A stretch of DNA of 64,000 nucleotides from Escherichia coli (GCF_013122565.1 NZ_CP053258.1); one strand, 5' to 3'; positions 15,961 through 28,572 are shown, counted from the stretch's first letter. Made by a program: numbers and translations. The notes: generated by a model from the sequence alone, not told the origin.

Positions 15961-17856
<1,896 letters not shown>

Positions 17857-17867
17857 TAATCTTAACC

Positions 17868-17892
17868 CGGCAAACATGTGTTTTGCCGGGTT
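17868..17892. terminator. Terminator hairpin after parE (CCCGGCAAA cat gtg TTTGCCGGG)
   Basis: 9-bp perfect palindrome with T-rich flank; lies between parE and the first islet gene. Confidence 0.6.
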
Positions 17893-17900
17893 GTCGTTGA

Positions 17901-18770
17901 TTATTTTATTGGGCACAGTTTGTTACGATCTGGAAATAGTGTTGCCAGCGAACCAGCCAGAGTTTTCCAGTCCGTAGCCATTTTTTCTGCTTGTGCAGTT
18001 GTTATTACTGCACCTTGTTGTTTAATAAGCTCATCCTCCACTCTGGTATAGTGAATAATGGTAAAATCCGTAGAGGACCATTTATCCTTAGAGAACATCT
18101 TCGTCATCGCATGAATGTTTGCTTGCCCGTCATCGATAAAAATAATCGCGTCATATTTGTTCCCCATTTTATCCAGCATATAATCGAGAATTACGCCTTT
18201 ATCTTGCCCGGAAGAAAAAAATACCCCCTGGCTGTACAGCCATGACCGTTTGAGTTTCCCTTTTTCAAAGGGTGGCAAAGTATCCTCTTTCTTCCTGAGT
18301 GCGGAAGACGAAAAATCAATGCCGTTTCGCTTTAATTCCCGCAATGTCGGAAAGAGAGTATCCGGTGCACGGGATGTCAGAGCAAAAGCGGTATGCTTTT
18401 GTTGCCACTGTTTTAACATTGTCGGTAACTGTGGCTCGGTAAGCTGCATAGGGCTAAGTTCGTAAAGCATACTGATTGTATTTTCATACAGGCAAGGAAC
18501 TTTTTGCGAGTCATCCGGCTTTAAGGGCAATTTATCGGTTTGCCATTGATACCAGATATCACCGCCAATGCGTGTGCCACTCGTTAATAACGTATTATCA
18601 ATGTCAAAAACCAATAATATCTTATCGGATGGATAGAGAGTTTCCTTTTCGGTGATAATTTTACTGACCGCACTATATTCGCCAGTAACTATATTTTTTA
18701 CCTGTGCGTAAGATAAAGCAGGCAGAGCAGAGAGCATCATCCAGAGAATGATTTTAAATTTATTATTCAT
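17901..18770 (-). CDS. Secreted HAD-superfamily phosphatase (acid phosphatase-like)
   Basis: 289-aa ORF; N-terminal signal peptide (MNNKFKIILWMMLSALPALSYAQ); HAD motif I DIDNTL; later FIDDGQ motif. Confidence 0.65.
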   Translation of the reverse strand: MNNKFKIILWMMLSALPALSYAQVKNIVTGEYSAVSKIITEKETLYPSDKILLVFDIDNTLLTSGTRIGGDIWYQWQTDKLPLKPDDSQKVPCLYENTISMLYELSPMQLTEPQLPTMLKQWQQKHTAFALTSRAPDTLFPTLRELKRNGIDFSSSALRKKEDTLPPFEKGKLKRSWLYSQGVFFSSGQDKGVILDYMLDKMGNKYDAIIFIDDGQANIHAMTKMFSKDKWSSTDFTIIHYTRVEDELIKQQGAVITTAQAEKMATDWKTLAGSLATLFPDRNKLCPIK

Positions 18771-18783
18771 TTTTTATTCCAGA

Positions 18784-19518
18784 TTAGAAAGTATAAGTCA
18801 GACCCCAGCGCCAGCGGATTTGGCGATTACTTGATGTTTTATCCACACCTTTATAATCCGCAATACTCATATAGGGTATCCACGATCCAATTTTGTACCC
18901 TACTTTAAATGATGCGGTATAGTTTTTATGGCCATCATTCCACGTTAAATAACCATTATTGTAATAGACCAGGTTTAACTGATATTGGAAGTTGGTTTTT
19001 TGTGGTCGATAGTCGATCCACACATCATAACGGCGGTTATTACGATCATCGTTGCCATAACCTTTGGATTTATCGGTGGCTTTATCCATGTCATAACGAA
19101 ACCGACCCGAAACTTTCCATTCTTTGCTGAAGTCATAACCCGCAGAAAGACCATATTCGTAAGTTGACCAATATTGCGTGGTATCAAGCCAGAACATGGG
19201 TTCTAACCAGAATTTTTTGTCATCCAGCGGCTTAAAGCGGTAAACAACAGATAATCCTGTTCCGTTATTGCCAAATTGTGAGGGGTCCCACTTATCTTTA
19301 TCACCTTCATCGGTGTTATAGCGTAATTCTCCCATCAAACCGATACCATTACTAAAAAATGTACCAAATTCAACGCGGTCCGCGTGGGTGCGAGTATCAT
19401 CAAGATACTCATGACGATAATCAATAAATCCATGCGGCTGTTCTGCACAGACTAGTGTAGGTGACAGGCAGGATAACATTGTTATTCCTGCAAGTGATAT
19501 TTTAAGATAAGAATTCAT
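18784..19518 (-). CDS. Outer-membrane beta-barrel porin, KdgM/NanC family (tentative)
   Basis: 244-aa ORF; signal peptide; Tyr/Trp/Gly-rich alternating pattern; C-terminal ...GLTYTF; IDYRHE motif near the N-terminus. Confidence 0.6.
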   Translation of the reverse strand: MNSYLKISLAGITMLSCLSPTLVCAEQPHGFIDYRHEYLDDTRTHADRVEFGTFFSNGIGLMGELRYNTDEGDKDKWDPSQFGNNGTGLSVVYRFKPLDDKKFWLEPMFWLDTTQYWSTYEYGLSAGYDFSKEWKVSGRFRYDMDKATDKSKGYGNDDRNNRRYDVWIDYRPQKTNFQYQLNLVYYNNGYLTWNDGHKNYTASFKVGYKIGSWIPYMSIADYKGVDKTSSNRQIRWRWGLTYTF

Positions 19519-19613
19519 AATATTCCCTTTCAGAATAAAATATATTTTTGGTGATCGAATACACCATCTGATGATTCCAGGTATTAGAATGTTTTTGTAT
19601 CTATAGTTTGACT

Positions 19614-20738
19614 TTAAACTTTAAGTTTGTTTTCCTTATCAATGAATAGATAAAATTTCGTCTGTTGATGGGGCTGGAAATTATTATCAGATACAAATAT
19701 TAACGATGTATGCCCATCAATCAGAGGACCGAAGGTTACCCCTTCAATACAATCCGCAGAGGAAGTGTAATCAGCAAAATCAATTAATAATTTTTTACTG
19801 ACGGGTTGTAACGTGGATTTATTGGACCAATCTTGCAGACTGTCAATATTCTTGATATCGCTGGCAGCAGTTAAATCGACCATATAAACTCTGACAGAGT
19901 AATCCCAGTCATTGAACCCAGCACTGACGTTTCTGCCGGAACGTTCGATGACCAACAATTGGTGATCATTCAGCGCCAGGACCTCGGATACGCCATTATC
20001 ATTAATACCGAACTTACTCACTTGCGGAACAGGATCAGTAATATAGAGATATTCATGCAATTGCTTTGAAGGTCGACCGTCTGCATCTATAGAAAATTGC
20101 AGTAAGCGTGCTGTGCCTGAATTTATTGGACTTGCAATAGGCCCATCCTGTTTAAGGCTGCTTTCAACGGCGATAAAAAGTGATTTTCCATCTGGTGTAA
20201 CTGTCAGGCCCTCCCAGGCGTTGCCGCTGCGAATACCATTGCTGCTCTCTTTGTCAGAACTAATATTAAAGCGAGCAGGAAATAAAGACGTAAAATCTTT
20301 CTCCATTACGCCATCGAGAGTGCTCAGACGCAGTGGAGCACCTAACTCCGAACTCCAGAGTAATGATTTACCATTGTGTGTCAGGGCCAGACCTTCGGCA
20401 TCCACCGTATTGGTCACGAAAGGCTGCTGTTTTGCATCAAGCAGTGGACGCTGGTTGAGAAAATTCACTTGCTCAATGCCCCTGGATGATACCTGTATTT
20501 TTAGTGTATAAAGACTGGCATCTCCTTCTTTATTATTGTTTCTGCTATCGTTAATAGCATAGAAAATATTTTTTTTTGCATCAAATGTGATGGCTGATAG
20601 CCCCGCGATTGTGACATTGTTCTGCTTTTCTCCCGTCCGGAAGTTAAACTCCCCAGCATAATGAAGAAAACTGTTTGCCTGCGCTGTTGTGCATAACAGC
20701 GGTAATGCCAGAAAAATAGCGGCATATCTTATTTTCAT
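19614..20738 (-). CDS. Secreted beta-propeller-like protein, phytase-like esterase family (tentative)
   Basis: 374-aa ORF; signal peptide MKIRYAAIFLALPLLCTTAQA; repeated AEGLA / EGLTVTPDG / IEGVTF motifs. Confidence 0.5.
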   Translation of the reverse strand: MKIRYAAIFLALPLLCTTAQANSFLHYAGEFNFRTGEKQNNVTIAGLSAITFDAKKNIFYAINDSRNNNKEGDASLYTLKIQVSSRGIEQVNFLNQRPLLDAKQQPFVTNTVDAEGLALTHNGKSLLWSSELGAPLRLSTLDGVMEKDFTSLFPARFNISSDKESSNGIRSGNAWEGLTVTPDGKSLFIAVESSLKQDGPIASPINSGTARLLQFSIDADGRPSKQLHEYLYITDPVPQVSKFGINDNGVSEVLALNDHQLLVIERSGRNVSAGFNDWDYSVRVYMVDLTAASDIKNIDSLQDWSNKSTLQPVSKKLLIDFADYTSSADCIEGVTFGPLIDGHTSLIFVSDNNFQPHQQTKFYLFIDKENKLKV

Positions 20739-20765
20739 GATATTTACCTTTGTATATATATGATT

Positions 20766-21680
20766 TTAGTCGTGTTGTGAAAGAAAAAGATTAACCTCCG
20801 ATGGTGTCGGCAGATGACCTCTGGCACCTAATGCAGTAATATTTATTGCTGCTGTGGCAGAAGCAAATTTTAGTGCTTCAATTAAGGGCATGTTTTTTAT
20901 TAAGCTATAAACAAATGCACCATTAAAAGTATCTCCAGCGCCTGTGGTATCAATAACGGGAATTGTATAACTACCTATTTTTACTTGCTCATTGCCTTTG
21001 ACTGCAATTACTCCCCTAACATCCAGCGTAACCACGACAGCGTCAAGTTGATACTCGTCTTGTATATCATGCAGAAGTGTAAAATCTGGCTCTGTTGCAT
21101 AGCCACGAATAAAACCGTCATAATTAAATATCGCAATATCAGCAAGGTGTAAAATTCTGGCAAGGTGTTCAGGTGTTGCAATGATATGAGGCTCAATATC
21201 AACGACAACTTTTGTCATTTGGCTACGGGAATATTCGGCCAGCATACGAAATTTCTCGATATCTGCTGGCATCGTATAAAAATAACGGCTTTGCGCAATT
21301 GCCTGCAGGGCTTTTTCTTTATCCCACTCATGATCACTACCAGGCGAGTAAACCAACGTTTTTTCACCTAATTCATCAATAAAGATAATCGCGGTATTGG
21401 CAATCAATTCCGGAATTACCTGAACGAAATCACAATTTACATGATATTTTTTAAATCCATCAAGAATGATCGAGGCTGAATGATCATTGCCCACACATGA
21501 AACAGATACCACATTGAGACCCAGTTGTCCCATCGCACAGGCACTGTTGGCGACTGTGCCGCCAGCTTGTTCACCCAGACGTGTCCCGACAACTTTACCG
21601 CCACGAGTGGGGAGTGACGGGATAGATAAAAAAATATCTATATTTCCACTGCCTAAAGCGGCGACATCAAATTTCTTCAT
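20766..21680 (-). CDS. PfkB-family carbohydrate/nucleoside kinase
   Basis: ORF 20766-21734; start placed at MKKFDVAALG with GGGAGA ribosome-binding site; PfkB signature DTTGAGDTFNGAF. Confidence 0.8.
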   Translation of the reverse strand: MKKFDVAALGSGNIDIFLSIPSLPTRGGKVVGTRLGEQAGGTVANSACAMGQLGLNVVSVSCVGNDHSASIILDGFKKYHVNCDFVQVIPELIANTAIIFIDELGEKTLVYSPGSDHEWDKEKALQAIAQSRYFYTMPADIEKFRMLAEYSRSQMTKVVVDIEPHIIATPEHLARILHLADIAIFNYDGFIRGYATEPDFTLLHDIQDEYQLDAVVVTLDVRGVIAVKGNEQVKIGSYTIPVIDTTGAGDTFNGAFVYSLIKNMPLIEALKFASATAAINITALGARGHLPTPSEVNLFLSQHD

Positions 21681-21684
21681 AGTC

Positions 21685-22683
21685 TTATTTCTCCCTATGG
21701 CTAACGCGTTGCCCGCCTGCGTCGACATAATCACAACTTAAATGCCAGCACATTTCATATAACCACTGCATGACCAGAAATAAATTGTTGGACTCACTGG
21801 CGTCAGGTATAAAACTGATTAATTCTGCTGTCGCTCCCTGTTCAACAATTGCTTTTTGGGTTGCAAGGTAAAATGGGGACTCGCAGGATGTGGCTGGTAG
21901 TAAAATATAATGCTGACCGACACCAGCCTGATGTAAGCGTAATGAATGATAAAATTCTTCCAGTGGAAGGGCTGTCGCACGAATCTGTGGGCCGCAAGAA
22001 AGTAAATTGCTCCCCGATATTGCCAGTCCCCAACTTAAGCCACTCCCAAGAAACGTTATCTCTTTTTGTTGGTAAAAATGGCGCTTCTTTTGCTGCCAGT
22101 GCTGATTAATCTGGCTAAATTTCCCTTCCAAATCCTCTTCAATCTGCAGTGGTGTTAAGCCTGGACATAATTTTTGCGCTAAGCGCAGGAGGGCATAAAG
22201 TGTGACGCTACTACTTTGCGTTGGAATACCCTGCTTATTCGCCCATGTATAGAGCATGTTTTCTGTTATTGCGCAAAATGGTGTTCCAGGGCAATTCGTC
22301 ACACCCAGCACTTGCGCGTTTGAGCATACTGCGTGGCAGAGGGCGTCAACGGTCATTGATGGTCTGCCACTTGCACTGAGAATAATGATTAACGTTTCTT
22401 TCTGATAACGGGTTAAATCAGTCTGAAGGAAATCCCACGTTTGCAATGCGTAACAAAACAGATGTGTGTATTTCCCCAGCCAGGCGGCGGCACATAGTGC
22501 CACCGTCCAGGAGTCGCCCGATCCCACTATACAGACGCGTTCAACAGCACGTTTATCGAGCTGAAAAGTAGAAAAACATTCACCCCAGATAGCTGCCAAA
22601 TGGCGTAACGATGCCGCGGTAGCATTTATTTCCTCACGAGTTTGCGCTAATGGCATAACAGGAGTACGGGCTGGCATGTTCAT
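21685..22683 (-). CDS. SIS-domain sugar-phosphate isomerase/deglycase-like protein
   Basis: 332-aa ORF; SIS motifs (VGSGDSW, SASGRPS); start codon overlaps the stop of the upstream gene by 1 nt. Confidence 0.7.
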   Translation of the reverse strand: MNMPARTPVMPLAQTREEINATAASLRHLAAIWGECFSTFQLDKRAVERVCIVGSGDSWTVALCAAAWLGKYTHLFCYALQTWDFLQTDLTRYQKETLIIILSASGRPSMTVDALCHAVCSNAQVLGVTNCPGTPFCAITENMLYTWANKQGIPTQSSSVTLYALLRLAQKLCPGLTPLQIEEDLEGKFSQINQHWQQKKRHFYQQKEITFLGSGLSWGLAISGSNLLSCGPQIRATALPLEEFYHSLRLHQAGVGQHYILLPATSCESPFYLATQKAIVEQGATAELISFIPDASESNNLFLVMQWLYEMCWHLSCDYVDAGGQRVSHREK

Positions 22684-23759
22684 TATTTCTCCTGTGCCTG
22701 TAATGCAAGCAATGTCAGACCCGATGCGATCGCTTCAATATCGAAATCTTTATTATTTACGGCGCGGAAAAAGGCATATTTATCTTCAGGGAGCGCATCA
22801 AAACCGCGCCATGCCCCTGCAATTGCGCCTGCCATCGTAGCGATGCTATCGGTGTCATTGCCAATATTGGCGCAGGCATGAATGGTTTCCCAGGGTTCTC
22901 CTTTGCAGTACAGCAATAGACCGATTGCCGCAGGAATGGATTCATGGGCGGCAACAGAGTTACCAACCAAACCTTCCATTTCTCGCAGACAAGACTCCAG
23001 GTCATTGGCTCGTCTGGCGATGTCCGCTGCAAGTTGGATGCGCATGGCGATAGATGGCCCTGCGACACATCGTGCATATTGTTTGGCCAGGCGTTCGCCG
23101 TAATTCGCTCCCCAGATTGCGGCGTCCAGTAATGATGTGAGCGAGGCTTCTGGTAACATAGCTTGTGATGTCGCCGCAGCGATGGCGCAAGCGCTGGCAA
23201 TCGCAATATTGGTGTCATGCGAAGGTAGGCAAGTTATTAGCGCCAGGTGACACGCTTTTTCTTTCTTGCCTGGCCAGATCAATCCTGCCGGGGCTACACG
23301 CATTCCTGCGCCGTTCGTGGTGCCGACATTGGGTGCCTGACGAGAAGATGTTCCAATACGCCCAATGGTGTTTGTTGGTCTACCTTCTTTTAGTGCCTTG
23401 ACGATTTGTTCTGTTGTGGGGCCTTTATAATTTGCGTAGGGCTGCATATCGGCCCAACGCAGAAGACAAGCTAACCAGTCATTATTGGTGAAGTTATCAA
23501 ATCCAGCCTCAATTAACCCTTCTGAAAATACATACATTTGGCTGGAATCGTCGGTAATAAGTCCCGCAATACCATTTAATGAGCCAGCAAAGGTATCGGC
23601 AGGAGGAGAAACAAAGGCATTTAAAAAACCTCCCCATTGCGCTTTTATTTCATCAATGCTGTAGAGTTCAGTCGCTGCGCCTAATGCATCGCCCATACCC
23701 GCGCAGGCTAAAGAACCTAATATTTTGTTATAAATTACGGCTTGTTCTATTTTGTTCAC
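22683..23759 (-). CDS. ADP-ribosylglycohydrolase-family protein
   Basis: 358-aa ORF; N-terminal GMGDALGAATE and C-terminal GNDTDSIATMAG motifs typical of the family. Confidence 0.75.
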   Translation of the reverse strand: MNKIEQAVIYNKILGSLACAGMGDALGAATELYSIDEIKAQWGGFLNAFVSPPADTFAGSLNGIAGLITDDSSQMYVFSEGLIEAGFDNFTNNDWLACLLRWADMQPYANYKGPTTEQIVKALKEGRPTNTIGRIGTSSRQAPNVGTTNGAGMRVAPAGLIWPGKKEKACHLALITCLPSHDTNIAIASACAIAAATSQAMLPEASLTSLLDAAIWGANYGERLAKQYARCVAGPSIAMRIQLAADIARRANDLESCLREMEGLVGNSVAAHESIPAAIGLLLYCKGEPWETIHACANIGNDTDSIATMAGAIAGAWRGFDALPEDKYAFFRAVNNKDFDIEAIASGLTLLALQAQEK

Positions 23760-23772
23760 AATATTCTCTCTG

Positions 23773-24525
23773 TTACACGCTAAAACTGTCTTTTGTAATT
23801 CGTGCTTTGTAGGAGTACCGACTTGCGGGATAAACCATCTCTACATACTCCATTGGTTTGCGTTCCACGGATAACGTGACGCGGGTACAACTTAATACGA
23901 CGTCATCGGCAGTCAGTTCCAGTAATTGACGCTCAAGAGGCGAGGGAAGTCGGGCAGAGATAATTTCCGTTGCTTCTAAAGGTTTAATAGCGAGTTTTTC
24001 TTCCAGTAAAATATAGAGGGAACCCGTCGCCAGCAGCTCTTCCTGAGTTATTTCTTGTCCGTCATTTAACGCAAGCCATGATGTCTGAATACCCAGCGGC
24101 GTACTTCCCATATAGCGAATGCGTTTTATACAGAAAACGGTATGGACATGGATATCAAGTTCGAGATTTTTTCTGATAATATCACTTAGAGGAATATAAC
24201 CTATTTCAAGAATATTCTGTGCAGGTACGCCGCCACGAGCCTTAATGTCATCAGTAAAACTATGTAATAAATGATTTTCCCGACTGCGAGCCGGTAATGT
24301 AAATGTTCCTTGCCCGTGGACACTATGCAGGTATCCGCGTTGTTTCAAACTTTCTATTGCTTTCCGAATTGTTGTTCTGCTGCTTAAAAAATGTTCAGCA
24401 AGTTCTCTTTCTGTTGGTATAGCTTTGCCTTCTTTCCATTCACCGTTATCAATCTTTTTCTTTATTTCATCAAAAATTTCACGATGCTTAAGCTGACCTT
24501 TACTGGCTTTATAAATTCTTATCAT
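23773..24525 (-). CDS. GntR/HutC-family transcriptional regulator (winged-HTH + UTRA domain)
   Basis: 250-aa ORF; N-terminal HTH (PTERELAEHFLSSRTTIRKAIESL); first gene of the minus-strand cluster, divergent from the transporter. Confidence 0.8.
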   Translation of the reverse strand: MIRIYKASKGQLKHREIFDEIKKKIDNGEWKEGKAIPTERELAEHFLSSRTTIRKAIESLKQRGYLHSVHGQGTFTLPARSRENHLLHSFTDDIKARGGVPAQNILEIGYIPLSDIIRKNLELDIHVHTVFCIKRIRYMGSTPLGIQTSWLALNDGQEITQEELLATGSLYILLEEKLAIKPLEATEIISARLPSPLERQLLELTADDVVLSCTRVTLSVERKPMEYVEMVYPASRYSYKARITKDSFSV

Positions 24526-24707
24526 GACAAAGCCTCATTTCAAGTGGTTGATACCAACTCTACATTCTTTTATTTTTATTGCGCAGTATGCTTCTTTGTT
24601 ATCTGTGATATAAAACAGAAAAAACCACATTTATTATTAAAAATCATTCAGTTAAATGAGATTGGTTTTTATGTGATGCTGCTCAATATTAACTCAGTGG
24701 TTTGTTG

Positions 24708-24719
24708 TGGTATCTACCA
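24708..24719. promoter_or_regulatory. Palindrome TGGTATCTACCA in the divergent promoter region; candidate GntR/HutC operator
   Basis: Perfect inverted repeat TGGTA-tc-TACCA between the regulator and transporter genes. Confidence 0.4.
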
Positions 24720-24811
24720 ATGCATTTATTCTCACTCGTAAAGTTATGTGCTGAATGAGTTCCGATACATTTGTTTTTAATATAATTTCACGTGATCAAT
24801 GAGTGCTGTGT

Positions 24812-26143
24812 ATGAAACTGACAATAAATGAAAAGATAGGTTTTGGTGCCGGTGATATGGCTATTGCGATAGTAATGATGTCTTTAGCCATGATCATCAC
24901 TTATTTTTACACGGATGTATTTGGTCTGAAACCCGTCGACTTAGGTATTCTGTTATTTTCTGTACGTATCCTTGATGCTGTGATTGATCCAGTTGTGGGA
25001 ACAATGACAGACAGAACGAATACACGTTGGGGAAAATATCGGCCGTGGTTGCTTTTTATGTCAATACCGTTTGGGATAAGCATTTGGTTGATGTTCACCA
25101 CACCTGATACCGATTATTCAGTTAAGCTTTTATGGGCCTGGGCTACCTATGTGTTACTTACCTTGACCTATACGTTAATCGCTATTCCTTATGTTTCATT
25201 AATCAGCGTTATCACGGATGATCCACAAGAGCGATTGAGCGCCAATGGTTATCGTTTTGTTATGACAAAAATTGCCATGTTCGCCGTAACAATTATTGTT
25301 CCTTTATCTGCAATGTATCTTGGGAAGAATAACGTACAACTGGGTTATCAAATAGCAATGGGGGCAATGGGAATTCTGGCAACGTGTTTATGCCTGTATT
25401 GTTTTTTTAGCGTGAGAGAGCGCATCTACCATCCAAAACCCAGTCTCGGTATGGCCGCGCAGTTTCGGTTACTGATCAAAAATGATCAATGGCTCATTTT
25501 GGGCGCTGTAATTGCGATCATTATGTTTGGCGGGATTATTCGTAACTCTGTCGCTGCATATTATGCAAAATATTACCTGAATGGTGGGGATGCTTTAATT
25601 TCACCGTTTTTAACTTCAGGCGTGATCGCCTCTGTTCTGGCTATGATCGCTTGTACCTGGCTTACTCGACTCTACGACAAAATAAAAATATTTCGTTATA
25701 CCCAATTACTGGCGTTCGTGGTGGGTGGTGCGATGTATTTCGTGCAACCAAATTCTATAGTGTTAGCTTTTACATTTTATATTGTGGTGACCTTCCTGAC
25801 GGATATTCAGCTTCCCATTTATTGGGCATCCATTGCTGAGTCCGTGGATTACGGTGAAATGAAAACGGGGCAACGTGTTTCTGGCCTGGCATTTGGCGGG
25901 ATTCTCTTTTTCCAAAAGTTCGGTATGGGGCTGGCAGGGGGCTTTATCGGAATCGCTTTAGCCTATTTGGATTATCAACCTGGTGTAGAACAAACACCAC
26001 AGGCGCTGTGGGGGATCTGCCTGTTAATGACGATCATTCCCGCGATACTTAACCTGATTACCGGACTCATCATGCGATTTTATCTGATTAATAATGAATT
26101 TTACGAACAGATTAAAGCACGGTTACAGACGGCGGAAGAGTGA
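24812..26143 (+). CDS. GPH-family (glycoside-pentoside-hexuronide) cation symporter
   Basis: ORF 24803-26143 with about 12 predicted transmembrane helices; N-terminal GxGxGD and RWGKYRPW motifs typical of MelB/YicJ-like transporters; start uncertain. Confidence 0.75.
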   Translation: MKLTINEKIGFGAGDMAIAIVMMSLAMIITYFYTDVFGLKPVDLGILLFSVRILDAVIDPVVGTMTDRTNTRWGKYRPWLLFMSIPFGISIWLMFTTPDTDYSVKLLWAWATYVLLTLTYTLIAIPYVSLISVITDDPQERLSANGYRFVMTKIAMFAVTIIVPLSAMYLGKNNVQLGYQIAMGAMGILATCLCLYCFFSVRERIYHPKPSLGMAAQFRLLIKNDQWLILGAVIAIIMFGGIIRNSVAAYYAKYYLNGGDALISPFLTSGVIASVLAMIACTWLTRLYDKIKIFRYTQLLAFVVGGAMYFVQPNSIVLAFTFYIVVTFLTDIQLPIYWASIAESVDYGEMKTGQRVSGLAFGGILFFQKFGMGLAGGFIGIALAYLDYQPGVEQTPQALWGICLLMTIIPAILNLITGLIMRFYLINNEFYEQIKARLQTAEE

Positions 26144-26186
26144 ATATAAATGGCCGGCAAACAGCACCGGCCTCTTTTCAGGAATG

Positions 26187-26501
26187 TTAAATCCCTGGCT
26201 GCAGAATACGAATATTCATCTCCAGCACGTCACCTTTTACGGCTTCGCTATACGCCTTCATGTGCGGGGTTTGCAGATGCGCTTCAAGATGCGCGATGCT
26301 TTCCCACTGCTCTATCATCACGATAGAATCCGGTGCCATAGACTGGAAACTCACGCCAGCAGCGCAATCCACCATTGGCGCATAGCCGTGGCAACCTTCT
26401 TCTTTCAGTACGGTTGGAACGATTTTAGCAAACTGATCCAATACCGCCTGACGGTGATGTTGACCAGGACGAGTACGGATTTCTGCGATTACGGTAAGCA
26501 T
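26187..26501 (-). CDS. ygiN: Quinol monooxygenase
   Basis: 104-aa ORF (MLTVIAEIRTRPG...) downstream of mdaB. Confidence 0.9.
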   Translation of the reverse strand: MLTVIAEIRTRPGQHHRQAVLDQFAKIVPTVLKEEGCHGYAPMVDCAAGVSFQSMAPDSIVMIEQWESIAHLEAHLQTPHMKAYSEAVKGDVLEMNIRILQPGI

Positions 26502-26531: not shown

Positions 26532-27113
26532 TTAACCAAAAATTTCCACAAGATGCTTGCGATATTCTTCAGTATAGCGGGGAACATCAGGCATTTTTAT
26601 CACGTCATTAGCGATAAATGTCGGCAGCGGTTCCATGCCAAGGAATTGGTTTGCTTTATGGAACGGCAGATACACACCGTCAACGCCAACGCCGTGGAAG
26701 AACTGATCTTTTTCGGTGAAGGCTTCCATTGGTGCGTTCCAGGTCAGAGAGAGCATATATTTTTTTCCCTGTACCAGGCCGCCGGAACCGTATTTTTTCG
26801 ACGGATCTTTGCGGGTACGACCATCGCTGGCATACAGCGTGCCGTGACCTTCGGTGAATACATCATCAATGTATTTTTTCACTGTCCACGGCGCGCCCAT
26901 CCACCAGCCTGGCATCTGCCAGATCACCACATCAGCCCAGAGAAAGTTTTGTACTTCCGCTTTGACATCGTAGTCGCTGTCGGCGCGAACGATGCGGACA
27001 TCATGCCCGAGGTCGCGCAGTGTGCCATCCGCGACTTCGGTCAGGGTGTCGTTCAGTTGACCATTGGAGTGGGCGAATTTTTTCGCGCCGTTGATAATCA
27101 GGATGTTGCTCAT
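26532..27113 (-). CDS. mdaB: NADPH:quinone oxidoreductase MdaB
   Basis: 193-aa flavodoxin-like ORF (MSNILIINGAKKF...). Confidence 0.9.
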   Translation of the reverse strand: MSNILIINGAKKFAHSNGQLNDTLTEVADGTLRDLGHDVRIVRADSDYDVKAEVQNFLWADVVIWQMPGWWMGAPWTVKKYIDDVFTEGHGTLYASDGRTRKDPSKKYGSGGLVQGKKYMLSLTWNAPMEAFTEKDQFFHGVGVDGVYLPFHKANQFLGMEPLPTFIANDVIKMPDVPRYTEEYRKHLVEIFG

Positions 27114-27222
27114 TTTTTAACCTCAAGGTGAGACGTTTTCCGACTATAGTACGTCACAGAGCGGTACGGTGAAATTAGCAAAATGTGCAAAGTCTTTTGC
27201 GAATTTAGCAAAAATCTTACCC

Positions 27223-28572
27223 TTACCAGCTTACCTTCGCCTCAAATCCACCTTGTTTCGCATTCCCAAATTCAACATTCATGCCATGCAATTTGGCGAT
27301 TCGCTGGACAATCGATAGCCCAAGCCCGCTGCCGGTAGCGGTTTGTCCGGGTGGGCGATAGAAGCGTTCGCCAATTCTCGCCAGTGCCTCTGGTGTCACA
27401 CCGGGGCCGTTATCCCTCACGATGAAATTATCAGCATTCAGCGTGACGTCTACCACGCTGCCCTGTGGACTGTAGCGCACGGCGTTATCCAGCAAATTTC
27501 GCACCAACAAACTTAGCAATAGCGGTTGTCCGGTGCGTTTGATGCCGTGGGCATTGAGTGTCAGTCGCACGTCAATTTTCGCCTGCTGCGCCGTGTGGTA
27601 AATATCCATCACCGACGATTGCAGGAGATCTTCAAGCGGGATCTCCGCGACGTCCTGAAGGTTATCCAGTGAGTCCAGCCGCGATAGCGTGAGCAGTTGA
27701 TCAACCAGACGAGTAGCGCGATCGATCCCGGAATGTAATTGAAGCAGTGCTTTTTTCCGCGCCTGCGGATCATCGTCAGAGAGCTGCGCAACTTCGGTTT
27801 GCACTTTCAGCGCTGTTAACGGGCTACGAAGTTCGTGAGCTGCGTCGGAGGTAAAGCGTCGTTCACGAACCATCATCGCATGTGTGCGGGCGAACAGTTG
27901 ATTTAGCGACTCAACCAACGGACGCACTTCGCTGGGTACGCCAGTCGCGTTTAGTGGTTTTTCCGAGTCAGGGTCACGCATACGTAGCGCCAGCGCCAGC
28001 TTGTTCAGCGGCGCGAGTTCACGACCCAGTAGTACCATCATGATGATTAACATAATCGGCAGTGCGACCAGCCACGGGAGCAATTGCCCGGTAACAATCG
28101 CCAGCGCCATGTCTTCACGGTATTCCCATTCCTGACCAACAACGATGCGATATTTGCCATCAGGTGAGGTCATCCAGACAAAACGCCATTGATCTTTATC
28201 GCCCACCAGTTGCCCGTCAGCAAAACCTTCCCGTTGATAGCTATAGGGAATATCTTCTCCGTTATCGCCATCGTTAAGGACCATTCTGCCGTCGTGGGTA
28301 AAGATGGCAAAGGTCAGCGCATCGTCATCAACATGACCGTGTTTTAATTTATTTGGCGTCTGTGCCATGCGATCCGCCGCGTTGATTTCGTTGAGATCGA
28401 GCGTACTTAACCGCTTGGCAAACAGCATCAGTTGGGTGTCGAACAACTCATCGACGTTATCCGTTGTTTGTTTCCAGGCGACAAAGCTGGAAAGCAGCCA
28501 GGTCACCGAGGCCAGAATTAAAAAGATTAGCGTCAGCCTGACACGCAGACTAAGACGTTGGGTAAATTTCAT
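27223..28572 (-). CDS. qseC: Sensor histidine kinase QseC
   Basis: 449-aa ORF; two transmembrane segments, H-box HELRSPL, ATPase domain; overlaps qseB by 4 nt. Confidence 0.9.

Follow-up and report, generated by a model that had tools for sequence, protein, structure and literature searches.

The 64,000-nucleotide stretch of Escherichia coli DNA analyzed here (NZ_CP053258.1; referred to below as the window) carries an islet of eight genes between parE and ygiN, which we read, with moderate confidence, as a strain-variable chromosomal system for the scavenging and catabolism of an extracellular, phosphorylated, ribose-containing compound of the nucleotide type. The substrate is probably ribose- or nucleotide-like, rather than an Amadori compound or phytate, because the orthologous loci in other genera interchange a Bmp-family ABC importer and a UshA-type 5′-nucleotidase with islet components, and add Tsx, adenosine deaminase and IU-type nucleoside hydrolases. 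A preliminary description of the same DNA had presented the islet as an accessory element of 8.3 kb that putatively served as a glycoside or phosphoglycoside scavenging system. Its accessory character is borne out: the segment measures 8,330 bp (17857–26186), while in E. coli K-12 MG1655 ygiN and parE are adjacent, with a spacer of 47 bp. The outline of the route also stands, including the porin, periplasmic phospho-hydrolases, symport, the cytoplasmic hydrolase, kinase and SIS protein and a local repressor, but the generic glycoside substrate does not, since the relatives of the locus indicate a nucleotide or riboside.

The segment has a GC content of 42.5%, compared to 50.8% in the rest of the window, and the open reading frame (ORF) calls gave seven genes on the minus strand and one on the plus strand. 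Domains were called with Pfam and NCBIfam profiles, and each of the eight family assignments made previously was backed by one or the other. No description of the locus was found in the full-text literature searched, and the RefSeq product names are all generic, in agreement with the earlier statement that this exact set of genes was not recognized as a described pathway.

All steps of the proposed route derive from family membership, localization signals and conserved context. The compound would cross the outer membrane through a KdgM-family porin, and a β-propeller protein and a HAD-type DUF2608 phosphatase in the periplasm would strip phosphodiester, pyrophosphate or monoester groups from it. 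The uncharged riboside or nucleoside would then be imported by a GPH symporter. In the cytoplasm, an ADP-ribosylglycohydrolase-family (ARH) enzyme would cut the ribosyl bond at C1 and a ribokinase-like PfkB protein would phosphorylate the sugar or the riboside, in either order, and the resulting sugar phosphate would be converted by a double-SIS-domain protein that is translationally coupled to ARH. Two TGGT-N4-ACCA boxes probably allow a HutC-type GntR protein to repress the two divergent transcription units; by analogy with other HutC regulators, the protein is probably released by an intermediate of the pathway.

Related Loci in Other Genera

Gene neighborhoods were compared using precomputed Pfam matches and a tblastn survey of 82 non-redundant loci. 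Orthologs of the ARH enzyme with 68–79% identity occur in Enterobacter, Leclercia, Providencia, Klebsiella, Kosakonia, Trabulsiella, Yersinia and Vibrio, and orthologs with ≈50% identity in Burkholderiales, Rhizobiales, Azospirillales and Chloroflexi. The GntR, ARH, SIS, PfkB, phytase-like and KdgM genes are kept in all six close orthologous loci (6/6). In Providencia, Kosakonia and Trabulsiella, a UshA-type 5′-nucleotidase takes the place of DUF2608; the Providencia protein scores 739 bits against the UshA profile, which has a cutoff of 600. In the close Vibrio locus, a Bmp-family ABC importer replaces the GPH symporter, a 5′-nucleotidase is present and Tsx has been added. Tsx is likewise added in the Enterobacter locus, and an adenosine deaminase that passes TIGR01430 in that of Providencia.

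Among the 42 loci in which ARH has 46–59% identity, PfkB is found in 36, an IU-type nucleoside hydrolase in 32, a Bmp/ABC importer in 25–29, a TonB receptor in 14, the phytase-like protein in 12 and SIS in 6. At <46% identity (34 loci, including gut Firmicutes), PfkB is found in 24 and an ABC importer in 12. In most of the more distant loci, the ARH gene is flanked by a Bmp ABC importer on one side and a PfkB kinase on the other, commonly accompanied by an IU-type nucleoside hydrolase. Judged by these family assignments, the comparison shows a locus built from two predicted modules, one extracytoplasmic (porin, propeller and phosphatase) and one cytoplasmic (importer, ARH and kinase, with or without SIS or a nucleoside hydrolase).

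The locus from a Caldilineaceae metagenome-assembled genome (MAG) of the Chloroflexi (L014, 8038–16649) contains three IU-type nucleoside hydrolase paralogs and two GlmS-like SIS proteins. This unusual redundancy suggests a family of related substrates.

The Secreted Module

Signal peptides could be read from the translations of all three proposed extracytoplasmic proteins. The “phytase-like” protein (374 aa; 19614–20738, minus strand) is a secreted five-bladed β-propeller matching PF13449 (8.8e-68). An AlphaFold model, made with an alignment of 54 sequences, resembles, among others, a Ca-dependent nucleotidase, and we propose that the propeller is a metal-dependent periplasmic phosphoesterase or nucleotidase. 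No likeness to known β-propeller phytases was found in either structure or sequence.

The DUF2608 protein (289 aa; 17901–18770, minus strand; PF11019, 3.9e-60) has a signal peptide ending in SYA. Its sequence includes HAD motif I, D56-I-D58-N-T60, and a later F-I-D-D-G segment, corresponding to the DxDxT and C-terminal acidic motifs of HAD phosphatases. There are weak matches to HAD_2 and acid phosphatase B, while HAD-IIIC and HAD-IA fall below cutoff; some homologs also match PF03767, the class-B acid phosphatase profile. We propose that it is a periplasmic phosphatase acting on nucleotides or sugar phosphates. The third protein (244 aa; 18784–19518, minus strand) belongs to the KdgM family of outer-membrane porins, with a match to PF06178 (1.7e-30) that covers residues 31–244, and has a signal peptide. 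The KdgM, phytase-like and DUF2608 genes form a contiguous triad in Vibrio mediterranei.

To our knowledge, neither PF13449 nor DUF2608 has a characterized member. A sequence search of the PDB returned no match for the propeller or for DUF2608, and DUF2608 is named in no paper of the searchable full-text literature. The gene neighborhoods of propeller homologs in Bacteroidota, and those of DUF2608 genes in Alteromonas and V. splendidus, offered no further information.

The Pfam name of PF13449 invites a different view of the islet as a phosphate-scavenging system, in which the propeller would be a true phytase or organophosphate esterase and DUF2608 an acid phosphatase, and the other genes would use the carbon skeleton, inositol or another polyol. 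The acid phosphatase B matches among DUF2608 homologs fit such a system. Furthermore, a genome-wide association study (GWAS) of chicken-associated, gut E. coli reports an accessory “phytase family protein”, taken by its authors as evidence of phytate degradation, as well as a “porin family protein” (PMC12987596, Table 1). These may be the PF13449 and KdgM genes of the islet; if they are, the results presented here argue against the phytase interpretation. We consider phosphate scavenging highly unlikely as the function of the islet.

Cytoplasmic Enzymes and Transporter

The ARH enzyme (358 aa; 22683–23759, minus strand) matches PF03747 (4.5e-49) over residues 15–326 and is thus a full-length member of the family. 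Two acidic motifs, T69-D70-D71 and D302-T-D304-S, are invariant in 14 orthologs with 50–79% identity; we take these TDD and DxD motifs to hold the binuclear metal center, as in the ARH3 and DraG structures. Because the metal-ligand motifs are invariant, the protein is probably an active hydrolase, and we propose that it acts as a cytoplasmic ribosyl hydrolase. Its best match in the PDB is the uncharacterized MJ1187 (3e-21), and its closest characterized relative there is ARH3 (≈1e-9).

Membership in PF03747 could also point to a regulatory or defensive role, in which the enzyme would reverse ADP-ribosylation of proteins or nucleic acids, like DraG, Tri1 or DarG, and would have nothing to do with its neighbors. 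The matches to DraG (1.4e-10) and Tri1 (5.8e-5) are weak, and lie below the equivalog cutoffs (40.9 vs. 337 bits and 22 vs. 490 bits, respectively). The locus contains no ADP-ribosyltransferase partner, and ARH is translationally coupled to SIS, in an operon with sugar-kinase and transporter genes that has been conserved in different phyla. Searches against the PADLOC-DB defense models gave zero matches for all eight proteins. A role in de-ADP-ribosylation is therefore extremely unlikely.

The similarity to ARH3 suggests a narrower version of the scavenging hypothesis, in which the locus would specialize in NAD, ADP-ribose or poly(ADP-ribose) breakdown products, which periplasmic enzymes would turn into ribosides such as nicotinamide riboside or ribosyl-adenosine, with ARH cutting the ribosyl bond in the manner of ARH3. 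The interchange of a UshA-family enzyme with a HAD phosphatase within the locus family agrees with this version, and presumably mirrors the NadN/e(P4) pair of Haemophilus. So does the adenosine deaminase in Providencia, and the combination of ARH with an IU-type nucleoside hydrolase in 32 of the 42 more distant loci fits a substrate with two glycosidic bonds. On the other hand, such compounds are scarce as nutrients, the genes for NAD salvage (pnuC and nadR) are not linked, and the best PDB match is to MJ1187 rather than ARH3. This specific substrate is thus unlikely. Taken further, ARH might be a catabolic ribosidase for α- or O-linked ribosides beyond the reach of ordinary nucleoside hydrolases, such as 2′-O-ribosyladenosine originating from poly(ADP-ribose), or ribosides that stem from NAD or ADP-ribose. 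The islet and the wider module of ARH, PfkB and nucleoside importer, with the paralogs YegU and STM4067, would then serve in feeding on ADP-ribose-type molecules released by the host or by neighboring cells. This is a speculative proposal to which we give a rather low probability, but it would constitute the first metabolic, non-signaling role for the ARH family.

The PfkB-family kinase (304 aa; 20766–21680, minus strand) matches the ribokinase profile (3.8e-43) and aligns end to end with the ribokinases of E. coli and Vibrio. The closest PDB entries are ribokinases (4x8f, 9.6e-32, and 1gqt, 3.1e-29), followed by the aminoimidazole riboside (AIRs) kinase 1tyy (9.8e-15). The scores of 147.9 bits against TIGR02152 (cutoff 299.65) and 134.8 bits against PRK11142 (cutoff 341) are too low for assignment as a ribokinase equivalog. 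For the ribose-contact residues of RbsK, a HMMER alignment with the E. coli protein (1gqt) showed that the N14, D16, N46 and GAGD columns were kept, while K43 was replaced by T and E143 by P.

The SIS protein (332 aa; 21685–22683, minus strand; PF01380, 1.6e-7) is a double-SIS-domain protein of the type found in FrlB and the C-terminal part of GlmS. Its NCBIfam matches to GlmS and FrlB are weak (5.3e-4 for FrlB) and far below the equivalog cutoffs (19 vs. 430 bits). Alignment with FrlB by hhalign gave a probability of 96.8% over 251 columns with 17% identity, consistent with two SIS domains and a sugar-phosphate loop. The conserved motifs are GSGDS, SxSGR, G(M/I)PTQ and EE[FY]HH, of which SxSGR is the phosphate-binding loop, and a sugar phosphate is the probable ligand. 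Throughout the clade, EE[FY]HH retains the His of the E-F-x-H-G-P motif of the second domain and the Glu before it, whereas the residue opposite FrlB's general-base Glu in this 17%-identity alignment is Ser or Ala.

The presence of this protein raises the question of Amadori or glycosylamine catabolism, as in the frl and fra systems. In that case, the kinase would act on a fructosamine-type compound, SIS would be a deglycase and ARH would cut an N-glycosylamine. The combination of a GntR/HutC regulator, a PfkB kinase and a double-SIS protein is indeed the established composition of frl and fra, and the hhalign and NCBIfam matches to FrlB point the same way. However, the kinase scores only 45 bits against FrlD, compared to 148 bits against ribokinase, and the column of the FrlB general-base Glu holds Ser or Ala in the hhalign alignment. 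The transporter is of the GPH or the Bmp-type ABC family rather than an amino-acid-type carrier, and genes for Tsx, UshA, adenosine deaminase and IU nucleoside hydrolases are found in the loci of relatives. Most loci with ARH and PfkB do without SIS, and the periplasmic phosphatase module would have no role in frl or fra. An Amadori pathway is accordingly very unlikely. The resemblance to frl and fra noted in the preliminary description holds for the SIS, PfkB and GntR composition, but is superficial at the level of the individual proteins.

The GPH symporter (443 aa; 24812–26143, plus strand) matches TIGR00792 with 351.5 bits over residues 11–442, above the cutoff of 231.35, and has a YagG-like match of 7e-109. 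Homologs with 57–58% identity adjoin divergent ARH and PfkB pairs in gammaproteobacterial MAGs.

Several points weigh against the proposal of nucleotide or riboside scavenging. The co-occurrence counts given above come from tblastn with a query set that we chose, rather than from full annotation. The kinase misses the ribokinase equivalog cutoff, and two of the ribose-contact columns are altered. It may be that the ARH-linked kinase acts on something other than free ribose, for example a riboside, like the AIRs kinase of Salmonella, because Duganella has both an ARH-adjacent kinase of the islet type and a second, more ribokinase-like PfkB (251 bits to ribokinase). The general-base Glu of FrlB and GlmS is missing from the SIS clade in the hhalign alignment, and the SIS gene is present in 6/6 close loci but in only 6/42 of the more distant ones. 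The GPH carriers known to us transport glycosides, not nucleosides, and the ARH enzymes of which we are aware remove ADP-ribose from proteins or small molecules, none being an established catabolic nucleosidase. We know of no enzyme activity, inducer or growth phenotype established for any of the islet proteins. Finally, E. coli already has Tsx, UshA, AphA and the Rih, Deo, RbsK and Rpi enzymes, so that ordinary nucleotides need no islet; the true substrate must be an unusual one that requires an ARH-type hydrolase.

Gene Organization and Regulation

Start codons were taken from the RefSeq annotation of CE0032f, a 99.7%-identical genome with the same eight genes. This sets the start of the kinase at 21680, where the mechanical ORF extends to 21734, and that of the symporter at 24812. 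The intergenic gaps along the segment are 13, 95, 27, 4, −1, 13 and 286 bp. The regulator, ARH, SIS and kinase genes are as tightly packed as previously reported, with gaps of 13, −1 and 4 bp, and the stop codon of ARH and the start codon of SIS share 1 nt, read as TAATG.

The regulator (250 aa; 23773–24525), consisting of a GntR helix-turn-helix and a UTRA domain, is encoded by the first gene of the minus-strand operon. It matches HutC-, PhnF- and TreR-type NCBIfam models with E-values between 3e-31 (HutC-like) and 6e-25, all below cutoff, and its orthologs carry PF00392 and PF07702. The divergent intergenic region of 286 bp between gntR and the GPH gene contains two candidate operators. Operator 1, TGGTTGATACCA (24545–24556), lies 20 bp upstream of the gntR start, and operator 2, TGGTATCTACCA (24708–24719), with palindromic half-sites TGGTA/TACCA, lies ≈90 bp upstream of the GPH start. 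The pattern TGGTWKMWACCA matches these two sites alone in the 64 kb of the window, where 0.07 matches would be expected. The corresponding intergenic regions of Providencia, Enterobacter, Kosakonia and Trabulsiella each have paired TGGT-N4-ACCA boxes ≈165–180 bp apart, and that of Vibrio also has two such boxes. The motif resembles published operators of the HutC family, and the two boxes are probably the operators of a HutC-type repressor. Rfam searches at E ≤ 1 detected neither a riboswitch nor any other RNA family in the islet, and seven related loci yielded nothing of relevance; RNA thus gives no clue to the ligand.

The parE–ygiN Junction and Distribution of the Islet

The islet is flanked by parE (15964–17856, plus strand) on the left and ygiN (26187–26501, minus strand) on the right. 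The left junction spacer (17857–17900) contains a hairpin at ≈17864–17892, AACCCGGCAAA...TTTGCCGGGTT, which probably terminates both parE and the minus-strand operon of the islet. The right junction spacer (26144–26186) includes a terminator-like hairpin at 26152–26172.

As in K-12 MG1655, parE and ygiN are adjacent in most of the genomes sampled. The ARH–SIS segment was found in 405 of 5,426 complete E. coli genomes (≈7%), and all 406 places are chromosomal; the single match labeled as a plasmid was rejected as such, being a record of 4.8 Mb, i.e., a chromosome. The islet falls into three allele classes with about 99.8%, 99.2% and 97.5% identity. A protein cluster at 90% identity includes a member annotated from Escherichia albertii. 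This member, together with the 2.5% divergence between alleles, suggests that the islet may be old in the genus and may have been repeatedly lost. In strain VTB97022v, the ARH gene is interrupted by an IS903B transposase, making it a natural knockout, and strain EC12 matches the islet in two pieces.

The segment contains no integrase or transposase ORF, confirming the initial observation that mobility genes and flanking repeats were not apparent, and none of the marks of an integrase-mediated island flanked by tRNA or att sites was found: no mobility gene, no convincing flanking repeat and no plasmid copy. The only k-mer common to both ends is a 10-mer, CCGGCAAACA, present in direct orientation at 17867–17876 and 26154–26163, inside both of the GC-rich terminal hairpins; ≈0.08 such matches would be expected by chance. 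A near copy, CCGGGCAAACA, occurs in the spacer of empty sites. The shared 10-mer may go back to the original insertion, or two terminator sequences may simply coincide. Transposition with target-site duplication was considered and rejected, as it would rest on one 10-mer embedded in a hairpin, with that chance expectation.

At the same junction, an O157:H7 strain (BB24-1; L003, 4735–12034) has an alternative cargo of 7.3 kb, encoding a TonB-dependent siderophore receptor, a FecCD-type ABC transporter, a binding protein and an RpiR regulator, and resembling the published fit locus. The bases after the parE stop codon (TGAtaatc) are common to the two islets, and on the right side the hairpin and the bases that follow it are similar to those at the right junction of the O157 iron-uptake islet, whereas the 47-bp spacer of empty sites differs from the left junction of the islet. 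Because the two cargoes share junction bases, the empty spacer is distinct and mobility genes were not seen, we read parE–ygiN as a probable replacement hotspot, at which cargo would be exchanged via flanking homology. The islet is passed on as part of the chromosome rather than on a mobile element. The paper on strain BEN2908 describes a region “GR 22 ygiN..parE” of 7.3 kb, common to extraintestinal pathogenic E. coli (ExPEC) strains of group B2, which may be the iron-uptake alternative, judging by its size and strain set.

In Vibrio bivalvicida (L006, 13485–21062), a complete Tn7-like tnsABCDE set begins 400 bp after the PfkB gene of the orthologous locus. In Providencia rettgeri (L004, 18297–21083, and L005, 16516–21083), the genes that come after the orthologous locus (antirestriction, DUF932, RadC and DUF987) are of kinds common in integrative elements, which hints that the Providencia locus, unlike that of E. 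coli, is at the edge of a mobile island.

Two features of the flanking DNA were observed in addition. The ygiZ gene (DUF2645) is missing between mdaB (26532–27113) and qseC (27223–28572), where only 109 bp are found (27114–27222). It is present in K-12 and in the empty-site strain FMU073332, but neither the O157:H7 strain nor the islet carrier CE0032f has it, so that its variable presence makes a second small polymorphism, ≈1 kb away from the islet. In K-12 (L095, 6282–6911), the genes just upstream of the insertion site include nudF, encoding an ADP-ribose/ADP-sugar pyrophosphatase, and cpdA, encoding a cAMP phosphodiesterase, in the run nudF–yqiB–cpdA–yqiA–parE; O157:H7 (L003) has the same order. 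The location of nudF and cpdA next to an ARH-containing, nucleotide-type locus is curious, but probably a coincidence.

Comparison with Known Systems

The periplasmic steps have precedents in UshA and AphA of E. coli and in NadN and e(P4) of Haemophilus, in which a UshA-family enzyme and a HAD-type acid phosphatase turn extracellular nucleotides into transportable nucleosides. The same two types of enzyme share one operon position across genera in the islet family. By comparison with these pairs, the DUF2608 protein represents an uncharacterized branch of the HAD proteins, and the PF13449 propeller has no characterized equivalent. The frl locus of E. coli and the fra locus of Salmonella share a HutC-type GntR regulator, a PfkB kinase and a double-SIS protein with the islet, but the islet differs from them in having a kinase unlike FrlD, an apparently replaced catalytic Glu and a transporter of another family. 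The frl and fra loci have no counterpart to the ARH enzyme or to the periplasmic module, and the context of the islet relatives is of the nucleoside type.

The rus polysaccharide utilization loci of Bacteroides are modular, and combine outer-membrane uptake, ribokinases, a transporter and a regulator with variable ribose-releasing enzymes, including nucleoside hydrolases and ARH; nucleosides, NAD or (poly)ADP-ribose are the proposed sources of the ribose (bioRxiv 10.1101/574913). They are analogous to the islet as modular ribose-scavenging systems that have recruited ARH. However, they use SusC/D-type uptake and other regulators, belong to another phylum and have no module of KdgM, PF13449 and DUF2608.

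Closer in architecture is yegTUV–ggaR (yegW) of K-12, which, like the islet, has a transporter, ARH, a PfkB kinase and an adjacent HutC-type GntR repressor. YegT, YegU and YegV have no assigned function (PMC10819704). The resemblance to yegU–yegV pointed out earlier is thus upheld for the architecture, but the two are paralogous only, with identities of 32% for ARH, 22% for the kinase and 25% for the regulator. They are also separate loci, because K-12 has yegTUV without the islet. YegT is an NHS-family MFS transporter, as opposed to the GPH symporter of the islet, and the yeg locus lacks the SIS gene, porin and periplasmic hydrolases. For the yeg locus, ADP-glucose is the reported effector of GgaR, and a glycogen phenotype is also reported.

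The stm4065–4067 locus of Salmonella has a GntR regulator, stmR. The locus is an operon of a permease, a PfkB kinase and ARH, and the mutant in STM4067 (ARH) is attenuated in the pig intestine (PMC3161100). Its core is similar to that of the islet, and its kinase, STM4066 (PDB 1TYY), accepts a riboside, AIRs. The islet kinase is nearer to the ribokinases (≈1e-31) than to STM4066 (9.8e-15), and the Salmonella locus has no SIS protein, porin or secreted phosphatases, unlike the islet.

A strain-specific catabolic islet in E. coli is in itself unsurprising; its value is as a handle on catabolic ARH enzymes and on two families of secreted proteins. The natural presence/absence polymorphism (405/5,426 genomes, with some alleles disrupted by insertion sequences) can be used for finding the substrate. 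Solving the islet would annotate two domain families, give ARH a metabolic role and explain a niche nutrient trait in commensal and livestock E. coli. The module of ARH, PfkB, transporter and HutC repressor is found in Enterobacterales, Vibrio, Burkholderiales, Rhizobiales, Chloroflexi and gut Firmicutes, and the islet is a more complete version of the uncharacterized module represented by yegTUV and stm4065–4067. To this module it adds a porin and two secreted phospho-hydrolases, which narrow the likely substrate to an extracellular phosphorylated riboside.

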